Counted from the stretch's first letter, positions 12,086 through 28,433 are shown. The stretch is DNA of 64,000 nucleotides from an uncultured Desulfobacterales bacterium (GCA_964443135.1 CAYUBQ010000002.1:10888-74887), one strand, 5' to 3'. The notes: a model not told the origin generated them from the letters alone. Numbers and translations: made by a program.

Positions 12086-13499
12086 ACCGCTGCTCCCCTT
12101 CCTCGAAAGCCCGGTTCAGGATGCGCCGGGCGTAGACCGCGGTGAAGAGCGCCGCCGCCCAAGTGATGCCGAAGATCCCCCACCAGATCCCCAGGAGACC
12201 CGTGCCGACGGCGTGGACCAGGACGCCGAACACGGCCGCGGGCAGGACGATCTGCCTCGCCAGCCCGATCCAGATGGCGAAGAACGGGCGCTTGATTCCC
12301 TGGAGCGCGGCCACGTGCACGAAGAGCACCACGTAGGCGTAGAGGACCAGGGCGTCGATCCGGAGGTACACGGCTCCGATCTCCACCACGGTGGGGTCGT
12401 CCGTGAAGATCCCCATGAGGGGCCGGGCCAGGAGGAAGACGCCGGCCATTCCGCCGGCCATGACCACGGCGCCGTAGACGAGGGAGGTTCGAAGCGCTTC
12501 CCGGACCCGGCCGTGGAGCCGGGCCCCGTTGTTCTGCGCCACCAGGGCCAGGGTGGCCGTGTTGAGGCCGATGGTGGGGATGAGCACGATCTGCTCCACG
12601 CGCATGGCGGAGCCGTAGGCCGCCACGGCCTTCTCCCCGAAGACGCTCACGAAATAGGTGATCACGAAGATCCCGATCCCCACGGTGAGGAGGTTCACCA
12701 TGGCCGGGAACCCCTGCCGCAGGATCTCGCCCAGGGCCTCCCGGCCGGGAACGGCGTCCCGGGGACCCAGGCACGCCAGGATCCCGGTGCGCGCCACTTG
12801 CCGGCCCAGGTAGGCGCACCCGATCACCTGGATGAGCACCGTGGCGAGGGCGATCCCGGCGATGCCCATGCCCGGCACGCCCAGCCCCCCGTAAACGAAC
12901 CAAGGGTCCAGCCCCACGTTCAGAACGAACCCGACGATGAGAAAGTTCCGGAAGGAGCGGGTGTCCCCCAGCGCGTACAGGACCGCGTTGAGCATGTAGA
13001 CCATCACGAAAAAGACCGAACCCAGAAAGATGATGTGCATGTAGACGAGGCAGGTGTCCAGGTAGTCCCCGGAGGCCCCCAGTGCGGTGAAGAGGAAGGG
13101 CGAGGCGGCGAGGCCGAAGGCGGTGAGCCCGGCCGAGATCCCCAGCCCCACACCGAGTGCCTTCAAGGCCATCCGGCCGGCCTTGTCGCGGTCGCCCTCG
13201 CCGAAGGCGTTTCCGATGAGGGCCGTGGCCCCCGTGCCGAAGCCCGATCCCGCGGCGATGATGATGAAGAAGACGGGCAGGGAGAGGCTCAAGGCGGCCA
13301 GGGCGCGGGTGGAGATGAGCCCGGCAAAGACCGTGTCCACCACGTTGTACATGGTGCTGAAAAAGAGCCCCACGCTCGCCGGCACGGCCAGCCGCCGCAC
13401 CAGCAGGGGAACGGGAAGAGAGGTGAGGTCCCCGAATCGCGGGGCTCCGGGAGTGGGACGGGCGGCCCGGGCCTCGCATGGACGGGCTTCCCCGGTCAT
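12084..13499 (-). CDS. MATE family efflux transporter
   Basis: 12-TM profile with N-terminal ...LLVRRLAVPASVGLFFSTMYNVVDTVFAGLIS, typical of MATE/NorM proteins. Confidence 0.88.
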   Translation of the reverse strand: MTGEARPCEARAARPTPGAPRFGDLTSLPVPLLVRRLAVPASVGLFFSTMYNVVDTVFAGLISTRALAALSLSLPVFFIIIAAGSGFGTGATALIGNAFGEGDRDKAGRMALKALGVGLGISAGLTAFGLAASPFLFTALGASGDYLDTCLVYMHIIFLGSVFFVMVYMLNAVLYALGDTRSFRNFLIVGFVLNVGLDPWFVYGGLGVPGMGIAGIALATVLIQVIGCAYLGRQVARTGILACLGPRDAVPGREALGEILRQGFPAMVNLLTVGIGIFVITYFVSVFGEKAVAAYGSAMRVEQIVLIPTIGLNTATLALVAQNNGARLHGRVREALRTSLVYGAVVMAGGMAGVFLLARPLMGIFTDDPTVVEIGAVYLRIDALVLYAYVVLFVHVAALQGIKRPFFAIWIGLARQIVLPAAVFGVLVHAVGTGLLGIWWGIFGITWAAALFTAVYARRILNRAFEEGEQR

Positions 13500-13512
13500 C
13501 CGCAGGCCCGGA

Positions 13513-13842
13513 TCAGTCCTTGTCCCTGCTCAGGTAGTCTCCGAGCAGGCCGCGGCTGTGCTCGTCCTCGTGGCAGTAGACGCACAGGTTCTCCCAGTTG
13601 GAGCCGTCCCGCGGGTTGTTGTGGTGGTTTCCGTCCTTGTGGTGGACGGTGAGGAGGTGGCGGTCGGCGTGATCGAACTCCCGCCCGCACTTGGCGCAGA
13701 TCAGGCCGTGGATCCGGAGCGACGCCTCGCGGTAGTCCACGGTTTTGGGGGCGGTCTCTCCGCGGAGCCTGCGCACCGCCTCGTCCACGTCCTCGGGTCG
13801 GATCCGCCTGGACCCCTTGCGCCTCGGCCGGTCATCCCTCAT
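13513..13842 (-). CDS. yajD: YajD-family HNH nuclease
   Basis: GLICAKCGREF...LTVHHKDGNHHNNPRDGSNWENLCVYCHEDEH, the YajD HNH signature. Confidence 0.85.
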   Translation of the reverse strand: MRDDRPRRKGSRRIRPEDVDEAVRRLRGETAPKTVDYREASLRIHGLICAKCGREFDHADRHLLTVHHKDGNHHNNPRDGSNWENLCVYCHEDEHSRGLLGDYLSRDKD

Positions 13843-13945
13843 GGAACGGTCCCCCTTTCCCCCGGTATCCTCCCGGTTCCGGACTTTTTGCGTATCATAC
13901 CTCGCCCGGGGGGGTTTGAAAAGGGGAACGGGGCGGCATGCCGGT

Positions 13946-15547
13946 CTAGGCGAGCCAGACCGACTCCAGGTGGCTCCCGTGAAACTCCACCACCATCCGG
14001 GGCCGGTTCCTCCCCAGGTCCCACGGCACGAAGCAGGCGAGGTGATCCAGGAGGTCGCGCTCGCCGGGCCCCACCCGCGGCTCGACCGCTTCCAGGGCCT
14101 CGCGGACCGTGGCCAGGATGAGCCGGTCGCCCTGAACGGCCGCGTTCACGGCCCGCAGGTGGTTTGCGGTCTGGAGCTGCTCCACCGCCTCTTCCCAGTG
14201 GACCCCTTCCACCTTGCGCCGCAGCACGTATCCGTTCCCGCGGTCGCGGACGGCCAGGACCGGGGGGTTGACGAGAAGGCGGGCGTTTCGCGCCCGAACC
14301 CCGGCGGTCGAGCGGGCGAGCCGCTCGAGCAGCGCCTTCTCCCGCCGGATCCGGTCCAGCTGCCTGGCCTGCACCCGTTCGAAGATGAAGAGCTCGCCGT
14401 CCAGGGTCAGCTCCTTGAGCCGGGTGGGGTCGAACCCCAGGTCCAGGAAGTCCCCGATGGTGAGGGCATCCTGGAGGGTGGCCCCGCGCGCCTCGAGCCA
14501 GGACCCCAGGGCCGGCCTCGCGTAGTTGGGGAGAGCCTCGATGGTCCGGGCCGGGTTGCGCTCGAGCTCCTCGGGAAGCCTCAGGATGAGGGGGCGATCC
14601 CCGAAGACCAGCTCCGGCTCCGAAGCGAGCTCCGGAGGTGCGTAGGACTTGGTCTTGAGGGAGAGCACGGCCGGGTCCAGGACGATCTGCTCCAGGGAGT
14701 CCCCGCCCGTGTACCCGAGCAGGCCGGCGATCCTTCGGCGGAACCCGATCAGCTTGGTGACGTAGCGGGTGAACATGAACCGCATGAGGGATGTGATGCG
14801 GCCCTCGGTCAGCTCCCGGTCGAAGTAGGTGAGAAGCGCCGCGTACAGGTCGCGGAACTCCGCGATGGTGTGCTTGACCATCTCCTCGTTGTCCCGCATG
14901 TCGATGGCCGCCCTCTTGCGGGTCAGGTGGTGCATCACCCGCAGGACCGGCTCCTTGAGATTCCGGTCCCGGAAACGGGACGGGACGTAGATCATGAAGT
15001 TTCCGGTCCCCTCCGGGCCCGCGTCCCCCAGGATCGCCTCCAGGGGCTCCCAGGCCTGCTTGGTGTAGATCGTGTAGGTGGGGTCCTCGGGCGAGATGAT
15101 GTTGTCCAGGAGCCCCACGGCGGCTTTTTCCTGGAGGAACCGGCGGAAGTGCTCCAGCACCAGACCTCCCAGGCCCTTGCGCCGGAAAGGCGCCGCCACC
15201 TCCACGTAAACCAGGTAGTAGCAGGGAAGCGGTTTCTTGAGGTAGAGCATGTTGAGGCGGCCCAGGTTCTCCCCGGTCTCCCCGTTGATCTCGAGGACCC
15301 CGAAGCCGTTCCGGCTGTTCTCGGGCCTGAGCGGGTGGACGCGGGCCCCGGAGACGGTTCGCTCCACCAGTCCCCAGAGGTTGTCGAAGAGATCGGCCAC
15401 CGCGGGGGACCCCTCGATCCCGGACCGCGCTCCCTCGTCGATGAGTCCGATCAATCCGAGACGCTCGTGGAGCTTGAGCCCCGGAGACGCTGTCGCCTCT
15501 TCCCCGTCCTTCAGCCCCTTCCCGGCTGCATCCGTACCGTCCGGCAT
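13946..15547 (-). CDS. hypothetical 533-aa protein: N-terminal GNAT-like acetyltransferase fold plus ~380-aa domain of unknown function
   Basis: YLVYVEVAAPFRRKGLGGLVLEHFRRFL fits the GNAT acetyl-CoA motif A (R/Q-x-x-G-x-G/A). I recognise nothing in the rest. Start at MPDGTD (complement of 15545-15547). Confidence 0.6.
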   Translation of the reverse strand: MPDGTDAAGKGLKDGEEATASPGLKLHERLGLIGLIDEGARSGIEGSPAVADLFDNLWGLVERTVSGARVHPLRPENSRNGFGVLEINGETGENLGRLNMLYLKKPLPCYYLVYVEVAAPFRRKGLGGLVLEHFRRFLQEKAAVGLLDNIISPEDPTYTIYTKQAWEPLEAILGDAGPEGTGNFMIYVPSRFRDRNLKEPVLRVMHHLTRKRAAIDMRDNEEMVKHTIAEFRDLYAALLTYFDRELTEGRITSLMRFMFTRYVTKLIGFRRRIAGLLGYTGGDSLEQIVLDPAVLSLKTKSYAPPELASEPELVFGDRPLILRLPEELERNPARTIEALPNYARPALGSWLEARGATLQDALTIGDFLDLGFDPTRLKELTLDGELFIFERVQARQLDRIRREKALLERLARSTAGVRARNARLLVNPPVLAVRDRGNGYVLRRKVEGVHWEEAVEQLQTANHLRAVNAAVQGDRLILATVREALEAVEPRVGPGERDLLDHLACFVPWDLGRNRPRMVVEFHGSHLESVWLA

Positions 15548-15578
15548 GGGTCCTCTCCCTCGAAACCGACTGCGCGCC

Positions 15579-15614
15579 AAAAAAAAAGAGGCGGAGCCTG
15601 TGTGCTCCGCCTCT
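15579..15614 (-). terminator. strong Rho-independent terminator (minus strand)
   Basis: The minus strand reads AGAGGCGGAGC-ACACAG-GCTCCGCCTCT followed by T9, an 11-bp GC-rich stem with a poly-U tail. Confidence 0.8.
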
Positions 15615-15750
15615 TTCTGTTTCCCGTTGTGTTCAGTCGGGCTTTTGCACACACCTAGGCCATCCGGGTCCCCCGGTAAAGTAGATAAAATAAAAGCCCG
15701 GTGCGTGTGCGCGCATCATGATGGGTGTCGAATCTCCTGCTGCAAAACGT
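15579..15750 (-). ncRNA. candidate ~170-nt small RNA (or small-protein mRNA) between its own promoter and terminator
   Basis: Bounded by an A-tract + TTGACA-N18-TAACAT promoter and the terminator above. Contains an internal CGGGCUUUU...AAAAGCCCG long-range stem and a CCGGG/CCCGG hairpin. Family not recognised. Confidence 0.35.
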
Positions 15751-15756
15751 GAGCGA

Positions 15757-15786
15757 ATGTTAGGCCAACCCGGGAACGCCTGTCAA
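15757..15786 (-). promoter_or_regulatory. sigma70-type promoter candidate (TTGACA-N18-TAACAT, minus strand) with upstream A8 tract
   Basis: -35 is the complement of 15781-15786 and -10 is the complement of 15757-15762. A UP-element-like A-run is the complement of 15791-15798. Confidence 0.45.
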
Positions 15787-15829
15787 CGGATTTTTTTTCG
15801 TCGCCTCTCGAACGCACCGCGGCTGCGGT

Positions 15830-16228
15830 TCATCCCAGGTCCGCCCGGTAGACCCGCTGCAGGAAGGTCTTGTATGCCTCCCAGTTGTTGAACACGTTCC
15901 TCGGGTCCTCGAACACCGTCTCGTAGGAGACGACCATCTCGTCGAACGCCGTGTAACGGGAGGGGACCCGGTCCAGCATCCGGTCCCAGGCCAGGGCCTC
16001 CAGGTAGTTGGCCACCGCCTCGGGACGCATCTCCTCCAGGCGAACCGGGCCTTCCCGGACGGCCCGGACGAAGACGTCGGCCCCCGCTCTGCCGCACTCC
16101 ACCGCCTCCACGAGCGCCTCCCGCGACCCGTAGGGGCCGAGGGGCCGGGCTTCGTCACCGGGCCGCGGCGCCCCGCCGCACCCGGCGATCAGCAGAACGG
16201 CCAGGACCATGACCGAGGCTCGTCCCAT
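15830..16228 (-). CDS. hypothetical lipoprotein
   Basis: MGRASVMVLAVLLIAGCGG lipobox, with AAGGGAG 7 nt upstream of the ATG. No recognised family. Confidence 0.6.
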   Translation of the reverse strand: MGRASVMVLAVLLIAGCGGAPRPGDEARPLGPYGSREALVEAVECGRAGADVFVRAVREGPVRLEEMRPEAVANYLEALAWDRMLDRVPSRYTAFDEMVVSYETVFEDPRNVFNNWEAYKTFLQRVYRADLG

Positions 16229-16287
16229 GCGCCCGCTCCCTTTCTCCCCGCTCCTCACGGACCTCGACCGAAGGGGGGGAGGAAAGC

Positions 16288-16521
16288 TCAGTCGTCGTTC
16301 GGCTCCACCCAGACGATCTGGTTCTTGTTCACGATGAGGACCTTGCCGGATCCGTCGCGGGTTTCCACGTCCGTCATCACCACGAAGGGCGAGTCCGAAC
16401 GGGTGAAGAGCTCCGAGACCCGGTCTTTGATGCCGATGTTGACCTGGCCTGTCAGGGTCGAACCGTCAGTGGTCTTGACGGTGACCCCCCTGTACTCCTT
16501 CCTGTAGCTGTCCGTCGCCAT
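16288..16521 (-). CDS. small hypothetical protein (77 aa), beta-rich, Sm/PilZ-like pattern
   Basis: MATDSYRKEYRGVTVKTTDGSTLTGQVNIGIKDRVSELFT...GKVLIVNKNQIVWVEPNDD, with GAGGAG upstream of the ATG (complement of 16519-16521). Confidence 0.55.
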   Translation of the reverse strand: MATDSYRKEYRGVTVKTTDGSTLTGQVNIGIKDRVSELFTRSDSPFVVMTDVETRDGSGKVLIVNKNQIVWVEPNDD

Positions 16522-16686
16522 GGGGTGACTCTCCTCTGATGCCGGCCGGCACATCGGGGCGTCCCGGCTTCCGCCCGGACCGGAGTTCCAGGCCCCGGTC
16601 GGGGGCTTCTTCGCCGTTCGAACCGCTGCCAGGGTGCCGAGTATAGAGCAAATCGTCCCGGCGCGCAAGTCGGCGCCCGGAAGGGC

Positions 16687-18000
16687 TCAAGCCGTTTCCG
16701 GAGTCGCGATGTCCAAATGCACGTCCCGCTGGGGAAAGGGGATCTCGATGCCGTACTCCTTGAACCGGTCCCACACCTCGAGCAGGATGTCGCTCCGGAT
16801 GTTCACGGTCCCGTTCTGGGGATCCTCGATCCAGAACCTGAGCTCCAGGTCCACGGAGCTGTCTCCGAACCCCACCAGGCGGCAGACGGCCTCCGGCGCC
16901 TCGAGCACCCGGTCCATCATCCTGGCCGCTCCCACCACCAGGTCCATGGCCTTGCGGGGATCCGACCCGTAGGAGATGCCGATGGGCACCTTGAGACGGA
17001 TCTTCCGGCTGGAAAAGGACCAGTTGACCACCTGCTGGGTGATGAGGTCCTCGTTGGGGATGAGGTACTCCTTGCCGTCCCGGGTCACCACGGAGACGTA
17101 GCGGCCCTTGAGGTTGGAAATCCAGCCGTAGACGTCACCCGTCTGGATCACGTCGCCGGGCTTGATGGACTTGTCCAGGAGCAGGATGATGCCGCTCACG
17201 AAGTTTCCCACCACCTTCTGGAGACCGAAGCCCACGCCCACGCCGACGGCCCCGCTGAACACCGCCAGGGCCGTGAAGTCGATGCCCACGCTGTTGAGCG
17301 CCACCAGGAACACCAGGGTGAAAAGGGTGATCTTGACGACCTTGCTCAGGAGCACCGTGGTGGACGGGGTCAGCCCGGAGACCTGCCGGAGCCTCCGCTC
17401 CGCCGTTTCCCCCAGCCAGGACCCCAGCCGGAGGAGGACCAGGAGCACCACCACGGCCTTGAGGAGGGAGAGGAGCGTCAGCTGGACATTGCCGATGCTG
17501 AACCCGAACTCGTCCAGGAGGGCCAGGCCGGGACCGAGCACGCCGATGATGTGAAGCGCGGCGAGCATCCAGGCCGTGCCGGAGACGAACCGCGACCAGA
17601 ACCGGTCCAGCAGCATGGAGGAGACCAGCTTGATGGTCAACCAGGCCACGAGGAGGGTCAGGACGATGCCCAGGAGAAAGGTCTCCCCTCCGGCCCGCCT
17701 CACCACCAAGGAAGCCAGCCAGAGGAGCACCGTGACCGCCGCCGCGGGGACCAGGTGGACCGCCTCCTCCAGCAGCCTCCGGAGCCGGGTCCAGGAGCCC
17801 GGCCGGCCCTCCAGGAGCGCCGCGATCCGCCCTTCGAGGTACCTCCGAACGGGTCGCCCCGCCATCTCGCCCGCCACCACGACCGCCAGGACCACCAGCC
17901 CCTGGACCATCGTCTGGGGGGCGAAGATCCGTTCCCCCAGCCACTGCCGGGCCCCATCCAGCCAGGCCCGCACGTTCTCGGCGGAAAAGAACTCGTTCAT
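16687..18000 (-). CDS. mechanosensitive ion channel (MscS family, extended N-terminal TM region)
   Basis: C-terminal MscS core ...GFGLQKVVGNFVSGIILLLDKSIKPGDVIQTGD..GWISNLKGRYVSVVTRDGKEYLIPNEDLI. Confidence 0.88.
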   Translation of the reverse strand: MNEFFSAENVRAWLDGARQWLGERIFAPQTMVQGLVVLAVVVAGEMAGRPVRRYLEGRIAALLEGRPGSWTRLRRLLEEAVHLVPAAAVTVLLWLASLVVRRAGGETFLLGIVLTLLVAWLTIKLVSSMLLDRFWSRFVSGTAWMLAALHIIGVLGPGLALLDEFGFSIGNVQLTLLSLLKAVVVLLVLLRLGSWLGETAERRLRQVSGLTPSTTVLLSKVVKITLFTLVFLVALNSVGIDFTALAVFSGAVGVGVGFGLQKVVGNFVSGIILLLDKSIKPGDVIQTGDVYGWISNLKGRYVSVVTRDGKEYLIPNEDLITQQVVNWSFSSRKIRLKVPIGISYGSDPRKAMDLVVGAARMMDRVLEAPEAVCRLVGFGDSSVDLELRFWIEDPQNGTVNIRSDILLEVWDRFKEYGIEIPFPQRDVHLDIATPETA

Positions 18001-18158
18001 GATCCTCCTTCGCCGCCCACGTAGAGCATGCGGGCGTACTTGCGGCGCCGTCCCGTCTTCTCGTAGAGCCGGACGGCCTTCTCGTCGGCAAAGTCCACGT
18101 AGAGCGAGAGGCTCCCTCCTTGGCCGGTTCTGTCCCTGTCCCGTCTTCCGTCCGACAT
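17997..18158 (-). pseudogene. possible remnant of the C-terminus of a GNAT acetyltransferase
   Basis: GGSLSLYVDFADEKAVRLYEKTG resembles the last beta-alpha-beta of GNAT proteins, but the acetyl-CoA-binding core is absent. ATGA overlap with mscS. Confidence 0.25.
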
Positions 18159-18259
18159 TCTAGCCTCCCGGCCTTTCCTGCTCAAGCAAACAATCCCGGT
18201 GCGATGGGGATGGCGCACCCCCGGCCTTTGTGATATGGAATGGGGCTCGGGAGGACGAG

Positions 18260-19486
18260 ATGGGACTGTTCAAGATCTTCGCCGGGAAGAGCCCGGAGGA
18301 GTTGGAAGCCAGGGGCGACGCCCTGTTCGAGGCCGGGGAGTTCGGTCGGGGCAAGATCGAGTACGAGAACGCCCTGGAGAAGTGCCGCAAAAAGCCGGAC
18401 CGGGACAAGGCCCTGGAGGGCCGCCTGGTCGAGAAGTCCAGCAGGGCCCGGGAGGCCCTGGCCGTTCGGCACAAGGAGGAAGGGATCGAGATCCTCGACT
18501 CCGACTACGACGAGGCCGCGGAGGAGTGCTTCCGACTCGCCCTGGCGCTCACCGAGGACCCGGAGCTGGTCCGGGAGCTGGAGGGGCTCCTGGACGCCAT
18601 CGGCACCCGACGGCGGTCGGAGCCCCTCCTGCCCGATCCGGACGAGGACCTTTTCGAGGGAAACGACGAGTCCGGCGGCGGTCCCGGCCGCGGCGAGACC
18701 TTCAACGCCCTGCTGAGCTCCCTCCCCGGTCCGCTCCAAAAGGCGTTTCGCGGCTACGGCGAGGCGTTCCGGGACGGCTACGTGGCCTTGAACCAGGGCG
18801 ACTTCCGGCGCGCCGCGGAGAGGCTGTCCGAGGCCCTGGAGGAAAACCCGGAAGGGGACCGCATCCTCCCGGAGCTCGCCACGGCCTACCTGAACCTGGA
18901 CATGCAGACCGAGGCCTGGGACCTGGCCGAGGCGTTCCTCCAGGCCCACCCGGACGACCTCCAGGGCTATCCGGTCCTCTGCGAGGTGCTCTGGTCTTTG
19001 GGCGAGTACGAAACGGCCCTCCAGCGGCTGGACGCCTGTCCCTCCCCCCTGGCCGACTCCCTGCCCATCCTGCACCTGCGGGGAGAGACGCTCCTCCGGG
19101 CCGGGCGGACCGCCGAGGCCGAGCGGCTCTACGAGGAGGCGCAGGAGGCCCACGGCTTCGACCCGGATCTGGCCCGAGCCCTGGCCGGGGTCTACGAGCT
19201 CCGCGGCCGGAAGGAGGAGGCCCGGGACCTCTACGGGAAGCTCCTGAACGAGTGCCGCACCTGCGCGGGACCGAGCGACCCCGTGTCCAAGCAACGCTTC
19301 GCTCAGCTGAGCTTCGAGCTGGGGGACCGGAGCCCCGGCGTGCTCCAGCTCTTTCTCTCCCTGGCCCGGGAGCACCCGGCCGGCCGGGCCGACTACTACG
19401 ACAAGGTCAGCCGGATCTACGCGGACCAGGGAAACCGGGAAGAGGCCGAGCGGTTCGAGGGGTTCGCCCTCCAGGCCCGGGAGTGA
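18260..19486 (+). CDS. TPR repeat-containing protein
   Basis: Repeated A-x-x-x-Y/F-x-x-A-L helical hairpins (e.g. RAAERLSEALEENPEGD, AEAFLQAHPDDLQG, AERLYEEAQEAHGFDPD). Start at MGLFKIF (18260). Confidence 0.75.
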   Translation: MGLFKIFAGKSPEELEARGDALFEAGEFGRGKIEYENALEKCRKKPDRDKALEGRLVEKSSRAREALAVRHKEEGIEILDSDYDEAAEECFRLALALTEDPELVRELEGLLDAIGTRRRSEPLLPDPDEDLFEGNDESGGGPGRGETFNALLSSLPGPLQKAFRGYGEAFRDGYVALNQGDFRRAAERLSEALEENPEGDRILPELATAYLNLDMQTEAWDLAEAFLQAHPDDLQGYPVLCEVLWSLGEYETALQRLDACPSPLADSLPILHLRGETLLRAGRTAEAERLYEEAQEAHGFDPDLARALAGVYELRGRKEEARDLYGKLLNECRTCAGPSDPVSKQRFAQLSFELGDRSPGVLQLFLSLAREHPAGRADYYDKVSRIYADQGNREEAERFEGFALQARE

Positions 19487-19733
19487 ACACGGTCCCCCGG
19501 CTTCCCCTCCCCTTGCACAGTTTTCCGTTTCCGATGCCCAGCTTTCTGTGCTGACGCCGCCCCCGGTCCGGTCTTCTCTCAACCGTTTCCATCCCGGGAA
19601 CGGTCCCTGCAGGCATCGAAGGCTTCCCTCGGCACCTGCATCGCCCCGTACTTTCAGCCGCTTGACCCCGCCGCCTCCGGAACCCCTCAGGTGCCGACCT
19701 CCGTGTGCCCCGATCCCGCCGAAGCGGCATGAT

Positions 19734-19841
19734 TCTTGATGGAGTCGAGAAGAGCCTGGGGCTTCCAGGCACTTCAAGACGGAAGCGGGGCCGCTGAACC
19801 CGGTGCTCGACGACGGTCGCCGGGTTTCCTGAGGAGACACC
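19734..19841 (-). repeat. copy D: degenerate, inverted copy of the ~106-nt repeat family, abutting RAYT-2
   Basis: Shares three ordered blocks with the reverse complement of copy B: TCTTGATGGAGTCG (14/14), TGAACC(C)GGTG, and GGGTTT. Its length (108 nt) is the same. The middle is diverged. Confidence 0.45.
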
Positions 19842-19862
19842 GCTTTCGGGGGAGTTGGAACC

Positions 19863-20945
19863 ATGCCCAGAGCCTCCAGAATCGACGCGCCGGGCGCGCT
19901 CCACCACGTCACGGCCCGGGGAATCGAGCGGCGAAGAATCTTCGAGGCGGACGCCGACCGGGAGGATCTTCTCCACCGCCTCGGAACCCTCCTCCCCGAG
20001 AGCGGCACGACCTGCCTCGCCTGGTGCCTGATGCCCGATCACTTCCACCTCCTCCTGGAGACCGGCACGGTGCACCTCTCCACGGTCATGAGACGTCTCC
20101 TGACCGGATATGCCGCGGGGTTCAACCGGCGGCACGGCAGGAGAGGCCCTCTCTTCGGGGGTCGGTTCCGATCGGTCCTGTGCCAGGAGGAGACCTTCCT
20201 GCTGCCGCTGGTGCGCCACCTCCACCTGAACCCGCTGAGGGCCGGTCTGGTCGACGGCCTGGAGGGGTTGGAGGCCTATCCCTACACGGGTCACGGTGCA
20301 CTGGTGGGGAGGGCGGCGGTCCCGTGGCAGGAGACCGGCCGCGTCCTGGATCGATTCGGCGGGAACGGCCGGTCGGCCGCGGCCCACTACCGCGCCTTCG
20401 TCGCCCGTGGTGCGGCCCTGGGAAGGCAGCCCGACCTGACCGGGGGCGGGCTGGTTCGAAGTGCGGGCGGCTGGAGCCGGCTCAAGGCCCTTCGCAGGCG
20501 CAACGCGGATCCGGTCGGAGACGAGCGGATCCTGGGGGACAGCGACTTCGTGCAGCAGACCCTGGCCCGGGCGGGCGAGAACCTGGAACGGAGGACGCGG
20601 CGGACCCTGGAAGGGGTGACCCTGGAACGGATCGCCTCCAGGGTGGCGGCGCTCTGGGGCATGGAGGATGCCGAGGTCTGGGCCCCGGGCAGGCAGCGCC
20701 GCCGCGTGGAGGCGCGCAGCGTCCTCTGCTACTGGGCGGTGCGGGAGCTCGGTTTCACCATGACGGACCTGGCCCGAAGGCTCGACCTCTCGGTCCCCGC
20801 CGTGAGCAAGTCGGTGCTTCGGGGGGAACGGCTCGTGAGAGAACGGGACCAGGGGCTTCGGGGACCCCCGGCCGCTCAGGCGGGCGGGGGTGATCCGTCT
20901 CAGTCGAACGGGCCTTCCGGCAAGCCCGCTCCGATTCGTTCTTGA
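19863..20945 (+). CDS. RAYT paralogue (HUH fold + DnaA-domain-IV-like HTH) with His at the catalytic-Tyr position
   Basis: Collinear with the gene at 8971 for at least 130 residues (MPRxSRIDxP...MPDHFHLLL...). The motif reads LVRHLHLNPLRAGLV where copy 1 has LVRYIHLNPLRAGVV (CAC at 20217-20219 versus TAC at 9325-9327). Confidence 0.85.
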   Translation: MPRASRIDAPGALHHVTARGIERRRIFEADADREDLLHRLGTLLPESGTTCLAWCLMPDHFHLLLETGTVHLSTVMRRLLTGYAAGFNRRHGRRGPLFGGRFRSVLCQEETFLLPLVRHLHLNPLRAGLVDGLEGLEAYPYTGHGALVGRAAVPWQETGRVLDRFGGNGRSAAAHYRAFVARGAALGRQPDLTGGGLVRSAGGWSRLKALRRRNADPVGDERILGDSDFVQQTLARAGENLERRTRRTLEGVTLERIASRVAALWGMEDAEVWAPGRQRRRVEARSVLCYWAVRELGFTMTDLARRLDLSVPAVSKSVLRGERLVRERDQGLRGPPAAQAGGGDPSQSNGPSGKPAPIRS

Positions 20946-20984
20946 CGGACCGGCCGTACCGTATCGACCTCCGGCCGGTCTGTC
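20944..20984. repeat. 13-bp-stem hairpin starting inside the RAYT-2 stop codon
   Basis: GACGGACCGGCCG (20944-20956) pairs with CGGCCGGTCTGTC (20972-20984) with one G-T pair and a 15-nt loop. There is no T-run, so this is either a REP-like hairpin or a terminator. Confidence 0.4.
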
Positions 20985-21111
20985 AGGAGGATTTTCCCCC
21001 CGTCGCTCCCTCGTCCTCTCTCCTCTTGCGATGGTGCCCCACTTCCGGGTATCTTGCCGGAAGGGTCGGCCGCCGGCCCCCGCGAACGCCCCCTATGCCC
21101 TGGAGGAGGCC

Positions 21112-22314
21112 ATGGAGAGTCAGACTCTGATGGAGCGGGCCCGAGACCTGCAACCCCGCCTGACCCGAATCCGGCGGGAAATCCACCAAAACCCCGAGAT
21201 CGGTTTCCAGGAGATCGCGACCACGGAACGAATCCGGTGCGAGCTGGCCGGGCTGGGCGTGGAAATCCTGCCCCTGAACCTTGGAACCGGCCTCGTCGGG
21301 CTCCTGAGAGGGGAACGGGGCGGCCCGGGGCCGGTCACGGCCCTGCGGGCCGACCTGGACGCCCTGCCCGTGACCGAACGGACGGGGCTGCCCTATGCGT
21401 CCCGCAATGCCCGCGTCATGCACGCGTGCGGGCACGACGGCAACATCACCATGCTTCTCGGCGCCGCGCAGCTCCTCTCCGAGAACCGGGAGCAATTCTC
21501 CGGCGCGGTCAAGTTCCTGTTCCAGCCCGCCGAGGAGATCTTCGGCGGGGCGGAGGCCATGATCGAGGCGGGCTGCCTTCGCGAGCCCACCGTGGACCGC
21601 ATGGTGGCCCTTCACGGGTGGCCGGACATCGAGGTGGGCAAGGTGGGGGTTCAGGCCGGCCCCCACATGGCGTCGGCGGACCGGTTCGAGATCCGCGTCC
21701 GGGGGGCCGGGGGCCACGGGGCCTACCCCCACCTGGCACGTGACCCGGTGACGGCCGCGGCCCACGTGGTGACCGCGCTCCAGACCGTGATCAGCCGGGA
21801 GACGAGCCCCATGGACCGGGCCGTGCTCTCGGTCTGCACGCTGGAGGCGGGGACGGCCTTCAACGTGATCCCGGACGAGGTGGTCCTGGGAGGGACAGCG
21901 CGGTGCGAGAACGAGTCGGTGCGGGCGGCGATTCGGGAGAAGGTGGACCGGGTGGTCCGCGGGACCGCCGGCGCCATGGGCTGCGAGGGCGGGACGGCGT
22001 GGACCGGCCTGGTCCCGCCCCTGGTGAACGACGAAACCGCCTGCCGGGAGATCGCCGGGGCCGCCGAGGACGTCCTGGGGCCGGGGGCGGTGGAGGCCCC
22101 GGGCCTGACCATGGGCTCCGAGGACTTCGCCCTCTTCCTGGAGCAGGTGCCCCGGGGGGCCCTGGTCCGCATCGGTCTGAAGGAGCCGGGAAGGGAGGCC
22201 ATGCGGCTCCACAACGACCGGTTCGACTTCAACGACGACGCCCTGCCCGTGGGCGCGGCCCTGCTGGCCCGGCTGGTGCTCCGGACCCACGGTCCCTCGG
22301 GAAAGGAGAGGTAG
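21112..22314 (+). CDS. M20D-family amidohydrolase (N-acyl-amino-acid amidohydrolase / hippurate hydrolase-like)
   Basis: RREIHQNPEIGFQE, ALRADLDALP, MHACGHDGN, and a C-terminal GSEDFA motif. Start at MESQTL (21112) with GGAGGAGG upstream. Confidence 0.88.
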   Translation: MESQTLMERARDLQPRLTRIRREIHQNPEIGFQEIATTERIRCELAGLGVEILPLNLGTGLVGLLRGERGGPGPVTALRADLDALPVTERTGLPYASRNARVMHACGHDGNITMLLGAAQLLSENREQFSGAVKFLFQPAEEIFGGAEAMIEAGCLREPTVDRMVALHGWPDIEVGKVGVQAGPHMASADRFEIRVRGAGGHGAYPHLARDPVTAAAHVVTALQTVISRETSPMDRAVLSVCTLEAGTAFNVIPDEVVLGGTARCENESVRAAIREKVDRVVRGTAGAMGCEGGTAWTGLVPPLVNDETACREIAGAAEDVLGPGAVEAPGLTMGSEDFALFLEQVPRGALVRIGLKEPGREAMRLHNDRFDFNDDALPVGAALLARLVLRTHGPSGKER

Positions 22315-22329
22315 CCTGGCGGAAAGCCC

Positions 22330-23121
22330 CTACGGCGTGTAGGCGGGAATCCCCAGGGAGTAGCCGCCGTCCACCACGAGGAGCGTGCCCGTGCAGTAGC
22401 GGGATCGGTGCGAGAGGAGATAGCGCACGGCCTCGACCACGTCCTCGGGGCGGCCCTGGTCGCCCAGGGGAATGCGGGACCTCTTGGTCCGGTGCTCGGC
22501 CAGGGCGGCCTCGTCCCGAAGTCCCTCCCGGACCCCCTCGGTGTCGATGAGGCCCGGAAGGACGGCGTTCACCCGGATGCCGTGGGGGGCCAGCTCCACG
22601 GCGAGCACGCGGGTGAGCATGTTGAGCCCGGCCTTGGAGGACGCGTAGTGGGCCACGCCGGGGCGGGCGACCCGGCTGGCCGTGGAGCTCACGTTCACGA
22701 TCCGGCCTCCCCCGCCGCGGGCGATCATCTCCCGGGCCACGGCCCGGGTGGTGAGGTAGGGCCCCTTGAGGTTCGTTCCCTGGACCCGGTCCCACTCCTC
22801 CTCCTCCAGCTCCATGAGCCCCGTGACGGGATAGAGCCCGGCGTTGTTCACCAGCCCGTCCACCCGGCCGAACCGCTCCAGGCAGGCCGCGACCAGCCGG
22901 TCCACGTCGGCTTGTTGCGAGACGTCCCCGGCGACGCAGACGAGCCGCTCCCCGGCCGCCTCGGAGCAAAGACGCTCCAGCCCCTCGCCTCCCCGCGCGC
23001 AGGCCGCCACCCGGCCCCCCCGGGAAAGCAGATCCCGGACCACGGCCCGTCCGATTCCCCGGCTGGCCCCGGTCACGATGACGACCCGATCGGCGACCTC
23101 CTCCGTCACCCGCCGCTCCAT
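22330..23121 (-). CDS. SDR-family oxidoreductase (FabG-like)
   Basis: VTGASRGIGRA, NNAG, and YASSKAG (YxxxK) motifs. Confidence 0.88.
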   Translation of the reverse strand: MERRVTEEVADRVVIVTGASRGIGRAVVRDLLSRGGRVAACARGGEGLERLCSEAAGERLVCVAGDVSQQADVDRLVAACLERFGRVDGLVNNAGLYPVTGLMELEEEEWDRVQGTNLKGPYLTTRAVAREMIARGGGGRIVNVSSTASRVARPGVAHYASSKAGLNMLTRVLAVELAPHGIRVNAVLPGLIDTEGVREGLRDEAALAEHRTKRSRIPLGDQGRPEDVVEAVRYLLSHRSRYCTGTLLVVDGGYSLGIPAYTP

Positions 23122-23154
23122 TCTCCTTGTCCTCCTCGCCCTTTTCGCGGGCCT

Positions 23155-24402
23155 CTAGGTACAGAGCTCGATCACGAGACCGGCGAACACCTGGGCCGTC
23201 TCCACGAGCTCGTCCGCGGTCACGTACTCGTCCACGGTGTGGGCCCGGGAGAAGTCCCCGCCCCCGTACATGATGCCGGCCACGCCGTTCGTGGAGGTCC
23301 AGTAGGCGTTTCCCAGGGAGGAGTAGCCGGCCATGTTGCCCGTGGGAACCACGTCCTTTCCGGTCAGCTCGGCAACCACGGCCTGAACCGTCTTCACGAA
23401 GGGGTGGTCCGGGCCGATCCCGCCGGTCTGCCGGTCGTTCAGGAGGCGCATGCTCTCCACCACGAAGCCGGGGTCCTTCGCCTGGAGCTCCCGGACCGTG
23501 CGGTCCATGAACGCCTTCACCACCTCCTTCTTGCGGGCGGGCCGGATGTCGAAGGTGATCCTGCACCGCTCCGGCACCACGTTGATCGCCTCGCCTCCCT
23601 GGAGGATGCCCAGATTCACCGTGGTGGCGCCCATGAGCGGGTCCTCGTGGACCTCGAACCGCCGCACCGCGCTGGCCAGGTCGATGGCCCGGTCCACGGC
23701 GTTGATCCCCTCGGCCGGGTTTCCCCCGTGGGCCGGCCGGCCCTTGAGGACGTACTCGTACCAGAGCCGCCCCCGCGCCAGGCAACCCACGGTGTCGATG
23801 CCCGTGGGCTCGCCCGCGATGTGGTAGTCGGGCCTGGGAAAACCGTTCTCCTCGAACCCCCGCTCGATCAGGTAGCCCATGCCGGGCCACTGGCCGATCT
23901 CGTCGTCCACCGTGGAGGTGAGGAGCAGGTCCCCCTGGAGCTCCACCCCCGCTTCCCGGAGCGCCCGGTAGACGATGAGCTGGACCGCCAGGTGGGCCTT
24001 GGTGTCCTCGGCCCCGCGGCCGTAGATGCGCCCGTCGTGGAGCTCGCCGCCGAAGGGCGGGTGGCTCCAGGCGCTCTCGTCGCCCGTCCCCACCACGTCC
24101 ATGTGGGCGTCCAGGCAGAAGACCGGGCCGTTCCCGTTTCCGCGGACCCGGGCCACCACGTTGGGCCTGGGGACGGTGAGCCCCAGAGCCTCGATCTCCT
24201 CCCTCGGGGCCTCCACCACCATGGGGTCCAGCCCCTCGGCCCGGTAGTTCCCGAGCATGGCCTCGGCCATGCGGGCGTAGTCCCCGGGCGGGTTCACCGA
24301 GGGGATGCGAACCAGTTCCCGGGTGATGCGGATCAGGTCGTCCCGGGCCTGTTCCACCCGGGCGGCGACCGCCGCGCGAAGCGCCTTCTTGTCCGTGCTC
24401 AT
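23155..24402 (-). CDS. M20-family metallopeptidase (ArgE/DapE/ACY1-like)
   Basis: LVRIPSVNPPGD, LDAHMDVV, GRGAEDTK, and TVDDEIG metal-ligand motifs. Confidence 0.88.
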   Translation of the reverse strand: MSTDKKALRAAVAARVEQARDDLIRITRELVRIPSVNPPGDYARMAEAMLGNYRAEGLDPMVVEAPREEIEALGLTVPRPNVVARVRGNGNGPVFCLDAHMDVVGTGDESAWSHPPFGGELHDGRIYGRGAEDTKAHLAVQLIVYRALREAGVELQGDLLLTSTVDDEIGQWPGMGYLIERGFEENGFPRPDYHIAGEPTGIDTVGCLARGRLWYEYVLKGRPAHGGNPAEGINAVDRAIDLASAVRRFEVHEDPLMGATTVNLGILQGGEAINVVPERCRITFDIRPARKKEVVKAFMDRTVRELQAKDPGFVVESMRLLNDRQTGGIGPDHPFVKTVQAVVAELTGKDVVPTGNMAGYSSLGNAYWTSTNGVAGIMYGGGDFSRAHTVDEYVTADELVETAQVFAGLVIELCT

Positions 24403-24421
24403 GTCAGCCTCCTGATGTACT

Positions 24422-24460
<39 letters not shown>

Positions 24461-24472
24461 AATGGCGTGAGC

Positions 24473-25456
24473 TCAGCCTTCGCCGCCCTTCAAGTGGCAG
24501 GCGATCCACCGGCCGTCCGGTCCGGGACGCAGATCCGGCACCTCGCGGCGGCAGGCCTCGATCTCGTGGGGGCAGCGGGGCCAGAACCGGCAGCCCGGCG
24601 GGAAGCTCTCGGGGTCGGGCGGCTCCCCGATGCCCTGGGCCTCTTCCGTGCCGGTCCCCGGCCTCTTCCCGATCATCGGGATGGCCGAGATGAGGAGGCG
24701 CGTGTAGGGATGGACCGGACGGTCGAAGAGGGCCGCCGTCTCCCCCATCTCCACGACCCTTCCGGCGTACATGACCGCCAGCCGGTTGCACATCATGCGC
24801 ACCACGCTCAGGTTGTGGGAGATGAAGATGTAGGTCAGGTCGAACCGCTCCTTCAGGTCCAGGAACAGCTTGAGGATGGTGGCCTGGACCGAGACGTCGA
24901 GACCCGAGGTGGGCTCGTCCAGGACCACCAGGGAGGGGTTCAGGCAGAGGATGCGGGCCAGCCCCAGCCTCCGCTGCTGCCCGCCGCTGAACTCGTGGGG
25001 GTAGAGCGAGAGGTGCTCCTCGCCCAGGCCCACCGCGGCCAGCATCTCCCGGACCCGCTCCCGAACCGACCGGCGGTCCAGGTCCGTGTGAATGACCAGG
25101 GGCTCGGCCAGGATCCGGCGCACCTTCCACATGGGGTCCAGGGAGGAGCCCGGGTCCTGGTAGACGTACTGGATCTCCCGCTTGAGCCGGGTGGAAGCCC
25201 GTCTGCTCAGACGGGTGATGTCCCGCCCCTTGAAGCGGACCTCCCCCTCGGTGGGCCGGTAGATGCCCAGGATGGTCTTGCCCAGGGTGGACTTGCCGCA
25301 CCCGCTCTCGCCCACCACGCCGAAGGTCTCGCCCGGAAGGACCTGGAAGGTGACGCCGTCCAGGGCCTTGACCCGCCGCAGCTTCCCCTCCAGGAAGCCC
25401 CCGGAGCCCTTGAAGTGCTTGCGCAGGCTGTAAACGTCCAGAATGGGCTCTGTCAT
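24473..25456 (-). CDS. peptide/nickel-type ABC transporter ATP-binding protein (DppF/OppF-like)
   Basis: Walker A GESGCGKST, LSGGQ-like FSGGQQRR, Walker B VVLDEPTSGLD, and a C-terminal oligopeptide-ATPase Cys motif. Start at MTEPILD (complement of 25454-25456), ATGA overlap with the upstream gene. Confidence 0.9.
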   Translation of the reverse strand: MTEPILDVYSLRKHFKGSGGFLEGKLRRVKALDGVTFQVLPGETFGVVGESGCGKSTLGKTILGIYRPTEGEVRFKGRDITRLSRRASTRLKREIQYVYQDPGSSLDPMWKVRRILAEPLVIHTDLDRRSVRERVREMLAAVGLGEEHLSLYPHEFSGGQQRRLGLARILCLNPSLVVLDEPTSGLDVSVQATILKLFLDLKERFDLTYIFISHNLSVVRMMCNRLAVMYAGRVVEMGETAALFDRPVHPYTRLLISAIPMIGKRPGTGTEEAQGIGEPPDPESFPPGCRFWPRCPHEIEACRREVPDLRPGPDGRWIACHLKGGEG

Positions 25457-26460
25457 GGCTTCGGCTCCACCGGGTGGAAGCACCGGACCCAGTGGCCCGG
25501 CTCGATCTCGACCTTCTCCGGCCGCCCCTTCCGGCAGTCGGCCGAGGCCGACGGGCAGCGCGGGTGGAACCGGCAGCCCTCCGGCGGCCGGAGCAGGCTG
25601 GGGACCTCCCCCGGGATGTCCCGGATGTCGCCCTCGGGGTTGGGCAGGCTCTCCAGGAGCTCCCGGGTGTAAGGGTGCCCCGGCCGTTCGAAGAGGCGCT
25701 CCGAAGGGGCGTCCTCCATGTCCTGACCGGCGTACATGACCACGATGCGCCGGCAGATCTGGCTCGCCACGCCCAGATCGTGGGTGATGAAGAGGACCGA
25801 GACGTTCATCTCCCGAACCAGGCCTCGGAGGAGGGCCAGGATCTGGGCCTCCACGGTCACGTCCAGGGCCGTCGTGCACTCGTCCGCGATGACCAGGCTC
25901 GGCCGGGGGAGGAGCGCCATGGCGATCATGAGACGCTGGCGCTGTCCCCCGCTGAACTGGTGCGGGTACTTTTTGAGCTGCTCCCAGGGCGAGGGGATGT
26001 GCACCTCGCGGAGCATGTCCCGGACCCGTTCCATCTCGAGGCTTCCGGACGGGCTCCGGCCGCCCTTCCACTTGAGGATGTCCCGTACCTGGGTCCCCAC
26101 GGTGAAGACCGGGTTCAGGGAGTTGAAGGGGTCCTGGGGGACCAGGGAAATTTCCCTTCCCCGGACCGTGGCGTTGAGCTCCTTCTCGGGCATGGCCAGC
26201 AGGTCCCGGTGGTCGAACCGGATGCTCCCTCCGGTGATCCGGGCCGACGGGGGAAGAATGCGGAGCACGCCGCGGACCGTGGTGGTCTTGCCGGACCCGC
26301 TCTCGCCGATCAGGCCCACCACCTCGCCGCGCCCCACGAAGAGCTGCACCCGGTCCAGGGCCTGCACCACCCCCCGGTCCGTGTGAAAGTGCACGGTGAG
26401 ATCGTTCACCTCCAGCAGCCTGTCGCCCGAATTCGTCACACCCTTCTTGTCAGCCTCCAA
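25453..26460 (-). CDS. peptide/nickel-type ABC transporter ATP-binding protein (DppD/OppD-like)
   Basis: GESGSGKTT, FSGGQRQR, and VIADECTTALD. The start is uncertain: TTG at 26460 as in the track, or GTG at 26439. Confidence 0.88.
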   Translation of the reverse strand: MEADKKGVTNSGDRLLEVNDLTVHFHTDRGVVQALDRVQLFVGRGEVVGLIGESGSGKTTTVRGVLRILPPSARITGGSIRFDHRDLLAMPEKELNATVRGREISLVPQDPFNSLNPVFTVGTQVRDILKWKGGRSPSGSLEMERVRDMLREVHIPSPWEQLKKYPHQFSGGQRQRLMIAMALLPRPSLVIADECTTALDVTVEAQILALLRGLVREMNVSVLFITHDLGVASQICRRIVVMYAGQDMEDAPSERLFERPGHPYTRELLESLPNPEGDIRDIPGEVPSLLRPPEGCRFHPRCPSASADCRKGRPEKVEIEPGHWVRCFHPVEPKP

Positions 26461-26562
26461 TCGCCTGGTCGCATGCTCGATCTGTTTTCCGCGCCTTTTC
26501 CTTCTGGGCTCTGATCTCTTCTTTCATTTTTTCTCACCTTTCACTGTCAACCCTCACCGCCT

Positions 26563-27417
26563 TCAGTCGAACCCCCTCCGGATCCTCGGGTCGAGGATGT
26601 CCCGCAGACCGTCCCCCAGCATGTTGAACCCCATCACCACGATGAAGATGGCGAGCCCCGGAAAGGTGGCATACCACCAGGCATCGGGCAGGTACTGGCG
26701 GGACTCGGCGATGGTCACTCCCCACTCCGGCGTGGGAGGCTGGGCGCCCACCCCCAGGAAGCCCAGGGTGGCGGCCGTGAGGATGGTGAACCCCATGCCG
26801 ATGGAGCTTCGCACGATGATGGAGGAGGAGACGTTGGGCAGCACGTGGAGCAGGATGGTCCGGATGCTTCCGGCCCCCACCGCCTCCGTGGCCTCCAGGA
26901 AGGCCCGCTTCTTGAGGGCCCGCGTCTCCGCGTAGACGATCCGCGTGAACCAGGGCCAGTAGGTGATGGAGAGGGCCAGGATGACGCTTCGAATGCTCGG
27001 CCGGAACGACTGGGCCAGGAAGATGGCCAGGATCACCTGCGGGATGGCGAGAAAGATGTCGGCCACCCGCATGATGCCCTCGCTGAAGAGGTTCTCGAAG
27101 TAGCCGGCCACCAGCCCCAGGGGAACCCCGATGAGGAGCGACGCCCCCACGGCGATCACGGCGATGACCAGCGTCACCCGGGTGCCGAAGAGGAGCCGGC
27201 TCAGGATGTCCCGGCCCATGCTGTCCGTCCCAAGCAGGTGCTCGGCCGAAGGGGACTTCAGCCGCTCCGCCGGGTGGATCTGGAAGGTATCCTCGGGATA
27301 GGGCGCCAGCACCGGAGCGAACAGGGCCGCCAGGACCAGCACGAAGATGATGACGAACCCGATGAAGGCGAGCCGGTCGCGGGTGAACCTTTTCCATGCC
27401 AGGCGAAACCTTTTCAT
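26563..27417 (-). CDS. ABC transporter permease (DppC/OppC-like)
   Basis: MKRFRLAWKRFTRDRLAFIGF...HLLGTDSMGRDILSR. Start at the complement of 27415-27417. Confidence 0.9.
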   Translation of the reverse strand: MKRFRLAWKRFTRDRLAFIGFVIIFVLVLAALFAPVLAPYPEDTFQIHPAERLKSPSAEHLLGTDSMGRDILSRLLFGTRVTLVIAVIAVGASLLIGVPLGLVAGYFENLFSEGIMRVADIFLAIPQVILAIFLAQSFRPSIRSVILALSITYWPWFTRIVYAETRALKKRAFLEATEAVGAGSIRTILLHVLPNVSSSIIVRSSIGMGFTILTAATLGFLGVGAQPPTPEWGVTIAESRQYLPDAWWYATFPGLAIFIVVMGFNMLGDGLRDILDPRIRRGFD

Positions 27418-28433
27418 GTCTCCGCCTTCCTGGGGTCGATGAGGGACAGGGCGATGTCCACGAGGAGGTTCACGGTCACGTAGGCGATCCCCGCCCACAG
27501 GGTCACGCCGAGGATCGCCTGGTAGTCCGATAGCACGATGGCGTTGAAGGCGTAGAGCCCCAGCCCGGGCCAGTCGAACACGGTTTCGATCACCACGGTC
27601 CCGGCAAGGAGCAGCCCGAAGAGGAGCCCGATCTGGGTGACCGTGGCGATGATGGCATTCCGGAGAAGGTACTTGTAGACGACGAGCCCGGGGGGCAGGC
27701 CCATGGCCCGCTCATAGGTGATGAAGTCCTGCTGGACCACATCCAGGACCCCGGAGCGGGTGAACCGCGTGATGGTGGCGAAGGAAGCGAAGGCCAGGGT
27801 GAGGGCCGGCAGGATCATGTGGACCGAGGCGCTCCAGAGGGCCCCGCCGTTCAGGGTCAGGAGTGCATCCAGGATGTACATGCCCGTGATGGCGGCCGGG
27901 GGATCGACGTCCATGCCGATGCGTCCCCCGAGGGGGGTGATCCCCAGCCACATGCTGAAAAAGAGCTGCATCATGATCCCCAGCCAGAAGCTGGCGATGG
28001 CGAGCCCGGCCACGGTCACCCCGCGGAGGAGGTGGTCCAGGGCCGAGTTCCGTTTGAGCGCGGCCACGATCCCCAGGGGGACGCCGATGAGGATGGAGAG
28101 CCCCATGGAGACCAGGGTGAGCTCGAGGGTTGCGGGGAAGCGGTCCACCAGGTCGTCGAACACCTTGCGCCCGGAGTAGAGACTCTTGCCCATGTCCCCC
28201 CGGGCCAGGCGCTTCAGGTAGAGGACGAGCTGCACGTGAAGGGGCTCGTCGAACCGGTACTGCTTGCGGAGCTGCTCCACCTGCTCGGGCGTGGCCATCT
28301 CGCCGGCCACCAGGGCGGCGGGATCGGCCGGGATCACGCGCGAGATCACGAACACCAGGACGAGGAGCCCCAGGATCGTGGGCACGGCATAGACCATTCG
28401 CTTGAACGCGTAGATGAGGAGGCTGCGATTCAT
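27414..28433 (-). CDS. ABC transporter permease (DppB/OppB-like)
   Basis: MNRSLLIYAFKRMVYAVPTILGLLVLVFVISRVIPADP. ATGA overlap with the downstream permease. Confidence 0.9.
   Translation of the reverse strand: MNRSLLIYAFKRMVYAVPTILGLLVLVFVISRVIPADPAALVAGEMATPEQVEQLRKQYRFDEPLHVQLVLYLKRLARGDMGKSLYSGRKVFDDLVDRFPATLELTLVSMGLSILIGVPLGIVAALKRNSALDHLLRGVTVAGLAIASFWLGIMMQLFFSMWLGITPLGGRIGMDVDPPAAITGMYILDALLTLNGGALWSASVHMILPALTLAFASFATITRFTRSGVLDVVQQDFITYERAMGLPPGLVVYKYLLRNAIIATVTQIGLLFGLLLAGTVVIETVFDWPGLGLYAFNAIVLSDYQAILGVTLWAGIAYVTVNLLVDIALSLIDPRKAET

Follow-up and report, generated by a model that had tools for sequence, protein, structure and literature searches.

A transposase-like gene that has lost its catalytic tyrosine and its element ends is nevertheless kept in place under normal purifying selection in an uncultured Desulfobacterales lineage. 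The gene, copy 2, lies at 19863–20945 (+) in a 64,000-nt stretch of DNA (67.5% GC), hereafter the window, which by tblastn holds exactly two members of the family; the other is copy 1, at 8971–9972 (+). RAYT and TIRYT genes are viewed as domesticated transposases. Copy 1 carries the tyrosine and terminal inverted repeats (TIRs), copy 2 carries neither, and the two form a natural matched pair within one genome. We consider copy 2 to be, with fair probability, an immobilised, selection-maintained TIRYT derivative that would form no phosphotyrosyl intermediate and act through DNA binding. What is new here is best classed as a Tyr-less, TIR-less, selection-maintained derivative of the known TIRYT type, and copy 2 has the look of a former transposase now employed by the host in a task that needs no cutting, and not of a dying pseudogene. 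At least part of what selection keeps in this family needs no tyrosine nucleophile, and therefore no canonical cleavage and strand-transfer chemistry. The parts of copy 2 are as follows.

19863–20945, plus strand: copy 2 coding sequence, an intact open reading frame (ORF) of 360 aa with a Y1 HUH core, a middle helical region, a DnaA-domain-IV-like helix-turn-helix (HTH) and a disordered tail
20040–20048, plus strand: codons of the HUH motif, H60-F61-H62
20196–20198, plus strand: codon TTC of F112, a Tyr in more than 90% of the family
20217–20219, plus strand: codon CAC of His119, at the position of the catalytic Tyr
20229–20231, plus strand: codon AAC of N123, the Asn that serves as metal ligand in the class-2 'Y---NP' motif
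20622–20831, plus strand: C-terminal DnaA-domain-IV-like HTH, about residues 254–323
20856–20942, plus strand: variable C-terminal tail, residues 332–360, modelled with low confidence (predicted local distance difference test, pLDDT, below 50)

The two proteins are 56% identical over 332 aa without a single gap (E 1e-119). An earlier reading of the DNA, the preliminary description, had called them collinear with five shared motifs; the alignment is indeed gapless and four motifs (MPRxSRID, MPDHxHLLL, VMRRLLTGYA and HLNPLRAG) occupy the same positions, whereas the fifth, FNRRHGR in copy 2, reads HNRRHGR in copy 1. The intact ORF, HUH motif and HTH described for copy 2 were confirmed (360 aa, H60/H62, DnaA-IV-type HTH), as was the exchange at residue 119, with CAC encoding it in copy 2 and TAC (9325–9327) in copy 1. 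The catalytic stretch thus runs H-L-H-L-N-P in copy 2 and Y-I-H-L-N-P in copy 1, and the 'Y---NP' class-2 motif is broken in copy 2 by His in place of Tyr. Neither H60 nor H62 varies across 122 homologues. Copy 2 matches Pfam Y1_Tnp (PF01797) at 30.4 bits against a cutoff of 23, which copy 1 also passes, and both copies have a weak C-terminal Bac_DnaA_C match. Both fall below the cutoff of 80 bits for NCBIfam NF047646 REP_Tyr_transpos (65.9 bits for copy 2, 75.1 for copy 1), and the PADLOC defence models gave no matches. The last ~30 residues of copy 2 are disordered, and this tail varies in sequence and length among orthologues.

Residue 119 corresponds to the nucleophile of characterised Y1 enzymes. 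An hhalign comparison of the family alignment with E. coli TnpAREP/RayT placed Y115 of the latter on position 119, N119 on N123 and H59-M60-H61 on H60-F61-H62, pairing HVDYIYINPVKHG of the family with LVRHLHLNPLRAG of RayT. The TnpAREP active site comprises Y115, H59, H61, N119, H123 and E161 (Messing et al. 2012), and 'Y---NP' is the class-2 signature (Quentin et al. 2018). We also built an AlphaFold (AF2) model of copy 2 on a 122-sequence alignment, which reached a mean pLDDT of 81 and exceeded 90 around residues 111–130. Its top Foldseek match in the Protein Data Bank (PDB) was 4er8_A (E 8e-6, target TM-score 0.70), the structure of E. coli TnpAREP in complex with a REP (repetitive extragenic palindrome) hairpin; the ISDra2, IS200 and IS608 TnpA structures followed (2xma, 2f4f, 2vjv), and E values over the four entries ran from 8e-6 to 8e-4. 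PDB searches by single-sequence phmmer and by the family profile returned no HUH structure, only DnaA domain IV. The earlier mapping of residue 119 to the Y1 nucleophile is therefore correct by hhalign, by the 4ER8 match and by the published active site, and the possibility that the catalytic Tyr maps elsewhere is ruled out by hhalign and Foldseek.

No tyrosine lies anywhere on helix alpha-D of copy 2; the catalytic alpha-D Tyr is present in copy 1 and absent from copy 2. The family's second near-invariant alpha-D tyrosine, Y112, is Phe in the window and in loci L007 and L008, and Tyr in L001, L003 and L004. A sequencing error at 20217 is equally excluded: CAC stands at codon 119 in all five His-bearing orthologous loci, which are independent metagenomic sequences, and the 90% identity cluster of copy 2 reads VRHLHLNP in seven of seven members.

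The histidine is inherited across a diverged set of orthologues. We found 12 distinct intact orthologous ORFs, down to 64% identity, with His in 11 and Phe in the twelfth. The closest database relatives (P0001–P0004, 80–94% identity) all read VRHLHLNP, and H60, H62 and N123 are kept in every His-bearing orthologue. The distant syntenic orthologue (P0005, equivalent to L004, L005 and L006; 64–66% identity) has Phe (TTC) at 119 and His in place of N123. CAC and TTC each lie one step from TAC but two steps apart. By parsimony, then, the locus would descend from a Tyr-bearing ancestor, and the Tyr would have been lost twice, independently. Two losses at one locus are what would be expected if catalysis had become dispensable.

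Copy 2 is also fixed in position. The orthologous loci are compatible, in six of six cases, with the order TPR gene, copy 2 gene, M20 gene, three in full and three cut on one side. The whole order is seen in L001, L004 and L006, the TPR gene with the copy 2 gene in L003 and L008, and the copy 2 gene with the M20 gene in L005 and L007. Positions 13004–28896 of the window are collinear with L001 and L004 at 83–93% nucleotide identity. Bracketing inverted repeats above background were found neither at copy 2 nor at L001, L003, L004 or L007. Fixed synteny, purifying selection and the absence of near-identical duplicates within the window make copy 2 a domesticated transposase in the sense of Bertels 2017. 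The neighbours are as follows.

18230–19486, plus strand: upstream neighbour, a TPR protein (Pfam TPR families)
21112–22314, plus strand: downstream neighbour, an M20 peptidase/amidohydrolase (Pfam Peptidase_M20)

We estimated the ratio of non-synonymous to synonymous substitution (dN/dS) by the Nei-Gojobori method (NG86) with bootstrap 95% confidence intervals (CIs). Pairs of His-bearing orthologues gave 0.20–0.28, with upper CI bounds of at most 0.36, and the flanking genes gave 0.23–0.29 (M20) and 0.24–0.34 (TPR). Purifying selection on copy 2 is as strong as on its neighbours. The HUH domain (residues 1–135) is under constraint no weaker than that on the remaining residues. Its mean identity to Tyr-bearing members is 64% for copy 2 and 62% for copy 1, a comparison biased by the choice of those members for their similarity to copy 2. 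Copy 1 and copy 2 themselves are separated by a dS of ~1.1.

These values bear directly on the possibility that copy 2 is simply decaying, as the relic of a dead transposase in which stop codons have yet to appear. Such decay would fit the joint loss of the nucleophile, Y112 and the TIRs, the variable tail, and the faster evolution and additional active-site changes of L004; it would also agree with Quentin et al. 2018, who saw motif-less TnpAY1 sequences, held them to be non-functional and dropped them. Against it stand the dozen different orthologues with intact ORFs, the most distant at 64% identity, dN/dS values whose CIs exclude 1 and which equal those of neighbouring host genes, the conserved synteny, and an HUH domain no more diverged than that of the Tyr-bearing paralogue. 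We regard the relic explanation as decidedly unlikely, and the case of copy 2 is a caution against discarding motif-less TnpAY1 sequences as pseudogenes, as in earlier surveys.

Both copies belong to the TIRYT type, Quentin subclass 2.1, and are not classical REP-flanked RAYTs; the label RAYT used in the preliminary description was imprecise, given the DnaA-like HTH and the lack of REP flanks. TIRYTs combine a Y1 HUH core with a C-terminal Bac_DnaA_C/HTH (Di Nocera et al. 2013; Quentin et al. 2018, as subclass 2.1), lack REPs and often have TIRs with a GGGGWSAS motif, and their catalytic Tyr is conserved in the members analysed in those two studies. The HTH of the present family is of the DnaA domain IV type, by its profile match to DnaA 2z4r (E 0.002) and by Foldseek matches to 3pvp and 1j1v (target TM-scores ~0.7). 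Within the window, no repeated palindromes stand beside either copy. Copy 2 shares with TIRYT/TIRtron elements the ~335-aa type of protein, the Y1 HUH core, the class-2 'x---NP' context, the Bac_DnaA_C-like HTH and freedom from REPs, and differs from them in lacking the catalytic Tyr and flanking TIRs. A literature search on TIRYTs did not find biochemistry.

Other HUH proteins are more distant. E. coli TnpAREP/RAYT (4ER8), the top structural match, resembles copy 2 in its aligned HUH and Asn metal ligands and in its single-copy, vertically inherited, 'domesticated' behaviour. Copy 2 differs from it in sequence (only ~18% identity), in lacking REP or BIME (bacterial interspersed mosaic element) flanks, in being ~200 residues longer, HTH included, and in carrying His at the equivalent of Y115. 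The IS200/IS605 TnpA proteins (IS608, ISDra2) share the HUH fold and the nucleophile position on helix alpha-D, but have the class-1 Y---Q motif, subterminal hairpins and no HTH, and belong to multi-copy mobile insertion sequences.

Copy 1 looks like a TIRtron-type unit. Its TIRs, which are of the GGGGACG type and which the preliminary description did not mention, begin GGGGACGG, agreeing with GGGGWSAS, the published consensus, in 7 of its 8 positions. The two arms are 85% complementary over 26 nt, and their core GGGGACGGGRATRAATTCAT is found in the window at these two sites only, where 0 occurrences are expected.

8971–9972, plus strand: copy 1 coding sequence, 333 aa, with Y119 encoded by TAC at 9325–9327
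8907–8932, plus strand: left TIR of copy 1, 26 nt, core GGGGACGGGGATAAATTCAT
9983–10008, minus strand: right TIR of copy 1, 26 nt

The ATG of copy 1 sits within a longer GTG-initiated ORF, and the conserved MPR N-terminus of the family favours the ATG. All members of the copy 1 90% cluster read VRYIHLNP. TIRs of the GGGACG type also flank two of three other Tyr-bearing homologues examined (L017 and L020), lying 33–127 nt upstream of the start and at most 4 nt from the stop, which they overlap in L020. Copy 1 stands between genes for a PiT transporter and a LysM/SLT protein, an order shared by L023 and L034 (63–67% identity), both of which retain the Tyr and, further upstream, the GGGACG...TTGACA stretch. 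In L024 (~6380–6750, reverse complement) the genes for PiT and LysM are neighbours, separated by a 370-nt AT-rich spacer with no copy 1-type gene; this spacer is either an empty or a deleted site. Upstream of copy 1 (8936–8971), as in L023 and L034, TTGACA is followed by 18 nt, TAAGAA or TATGAG as the -10 hexamer, 5–6 nt and the ATG, a layout that suggests a leaderless transcript from a putative promoter just inside the left TIR.

Loss of the tyrosine has occurred sporadically, and more than once, in this family. The family is very large, with over 7,900 close homologues and, when clustered at 50% identity, 13,789 representatives (E ≤ 1e-10). Among the 120 closest homologues and the two window copies, position 119 is Tyr in 114 of 122, His in six, Phe in one and Thr in one. 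Among 150 representatives from the 50% clustering together with the two window copies, Tyr occurs in 142 of the 148 that have a residue there; the exceptions are His in copy 2, P0177, P0208 and P0258, Ala in P0153 and Asp in P0226. The Ala and Asp proteins have lost HUH as well. The nearest neighbours of every Tyr-less member carry Tyr, so the losses are independent. The His of P0208 is a tip singleton whose relatives at 70–76% identity all have Tyr. These Tyr-bearing neighbours and the P0208 singleton rule out Y-to-H variants as an old or specifically selected clade, and in GC-rich genomes one T-to-C transition, turning TAC into CAC, adequately explains their recurrence. Among the sampled cases, only the copy 2 clade shares the change throughout a set of diverged, syntenic orthologues.

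A recurrent histidine raises the question of whether copy 2 is still an enzyme, with His119 serving either as nucleophile through a phosphoramidate, as in MobM, or as the general base of a hydrolytic nicking reaction. In MobM, a relaxase of the HUH type, a His is the nucleophile (PMC5863519). As a MOBV single-stranded DNA (ssDNA) nickase with His in the place of Tyr, MobM offers a precedent, although it belongs to another family with another architecture and supplies a mechanistic possibility only, without implying homology. Catalysis by His would accord with the retention of H60, H62 and N123 in all His-bearing orthologues and with His being the commonest Tyr replacement, arrived at independently at least five times (in the copy 2 clade, P0119, P0177, P0208 and P0258), each time with the rest of the site intact, unlike the Ala and Asp replacements. 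The intact residues nearby may, however, reflect only how recent the change is. Moreover, syntenic L004 has Phe, which offers no possible nucleophile, and its gene is still intact; P0208 is a singleton and the T-to-C transition accounts for the recurrence; and no TIR or REP substrates surround copy 2. That copy 2 is an enzyme working through His119 is very unlikely, and the specific version in which Y119H would be a natural 'H1' variant, a site-specific ssDNA nickase serving the host at a fixed locus, is highly improbable.

The immobilised, DNA-binding derivative that we favour would have arisen as follows. Copy 2 would be the vertically inherited descendant of a TIRYT element. It has lost its alpha-D nucleophile (Y119 to H) and, in its own sub-lineage, Y112 as well, has no TIRs, and sits at one fixed place between the TPR and M20 genes, while its HUH fold, its HTH and the metal site formed by HUH and Asn are all retained. 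Without the Tyr it should form no 5'-phosphotyrosyl intermediate, and hence should perform no canonical Y1 cleavage and strand transfer. With the Tyr lost, it would therefore act non-catalytically, by binding DNA through the HUH domain, the HTH or both. Its likeliest roles would be as a regulator or competitor of TIRYT-type ends or of an active paralogue, or as a host DNA-binding factor. The preliminary description had proposed that copy 2 either binds DNA without cleaving it or uses another residue. Its interpretation is supported: neither a Tyr located elsewhere nor a sequencing error held, and both versions of this putative function are compatible with all findings.

A role tied directly to copy 1 deserves separate consideration. 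Copy 2 might be a dominant-negative or accessory partner that binds the same TIRs or forms mixed oligomers, restraining or directing copy 1. Both genes lie in one genome, 10.9 kb apart, with a common fold and similar HTH recognition regions (PAVSKSV in copy 2, PAVSISV in copy 1), and PMC3597680 describes IS608 TnpA active sites as formed in trans across a dimer. The two proteins are, however, only 56% identical with a dS of ~1.1, so they have probably diverged in specificity; Messing et al. 2012 describe E. coli TnpAREP as a monomer; and the copy 1 TIR core occurs nowhere else in the window. We consider such a partnership unlikely.

Several observations weigh against an immobilised DNA-binding derivative under selection. 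The window compared with L004, the Phe orthologue, gave a dN/dS of 0.43 (CI 0.31–0.58), and this orthologue is 66% identical to copy 2 where its flanks are 88–89% identical, with both dN and dS raised. The faster evolution of L004 could mean relaxed constraint; the divergence of L004, L005 and L006 suggests either that this lineage has accelerated or that it has recombined with another paralogue. NG86 is a crude estimator at 67.5% GC, and neither the tail nor the hairpin that overlaps the stop codon (described below) is conserved. The putative inactivity of copy 2 is argued from Y-to-F mutants of other HUH enzymes, and the intact HUH/Asn site together with the MobM precedent would leave room for His catalysis. 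Finally, the regulator or competitor role is putative.

The surroundings of copy 2 carry a short conserved motif. The upstream intergenic region spans 376 nt and is mostly poorly conserved apart from a few blocks, one of which, GGCAYG-N4-TTGNT, occurs once in the window. Its spacing resembles the -24/-12 spacing of sigma-54 promoters, and the canonical -12 C is missing. The motif ends 17–19 nt before the ATG in L001, L003 and L008, and ~120 nt or more before it in the window, L004 and L007; a sigma-54 start in the first three would fall ~3 nt 5' of the ATG. The canonical sigma-54 consensus was rejected because of the missing -12 C, and the window holds no clear canonical sites for comparison. 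The upstream region of copy 2 is unlike the promoter layout of copy 1, and the conserved sigma-54-like motif suggests putative regulatory rewiring. The features around the gene are as follows.

19726–19740, plus strand: upstream motif GGCAYG-N4-TTGNT, with an invariant core in six orthologous loci
19730–19756, minus strand: sole similarity to the '106-nt repeat' upstream of copy 2, 28 nt at 86%, matching the end of the repeat (blastn, nhmmer)
4726–4849, 30193–30315 and 43254–43377, all plus strand: copies of the '106-nt repeat', resembling miniature inverted-repeat transposable elements, ~115–125 nt
20939–20989, plus strand: hairpin over the copy 2 stop codon, with an 18-pair stem

A degenerate copy of the 106-nt repeat had been placed before copy 2. 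This was not supported: only the 28-nt end match was found there, and an nhmmer search of the window with a profile of the three copies (E ≤ 10) returned just those three and none by copy 2. In L007 a complete fourth copy does stand at the corresponding spot before the copy 2 orthologue, inserted at 276–390 (minus strand) and flanked by TTYTGATGGA, and given this insertion the element appears to have been recently mobile. The repeat has inverted inner ends TCGCAAGAAsCCCG and short direct flank duplications, such as TCAAGGAGTGA at either side of the copy at 4737, and its ends are unlike the copy 1 TIRs. Rfam gave no matches in the whole window, the repeat included.

The hairpin behind copy 2, earlier given as a 13-bp stem at 20944–20984, is real and larger than described, with 18 pairs at 20939–20989. 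Folded as RNA it reaches a dG of -33.3 kcal/mol, with a z of -5.0 relative to shuffled sequences. The window holds no second copy of it, and it lacks a T-run; L007 and L008 have a weaker or displaced version, and L001 and L004 have a deletion in its place. An intrinsic terminator and a REP were rejected on these grounds. The hairpin is lineage-specific and not an essential part of the gene.

Two further observations concern the neighbouring genes. A PALP and acetyltransferase gene lies between the MscS-like channel and TPR genes in L001 (5077–6389) and L004 (4943–6222), and is missing from the window (18119–18156) and from L003. Upstream of the M20 gene, the palindrome CTTCCGG-GTATCTTG-CCGGAAG at ~21040–21065 is conserved in L001 and L007 and may be an operator.

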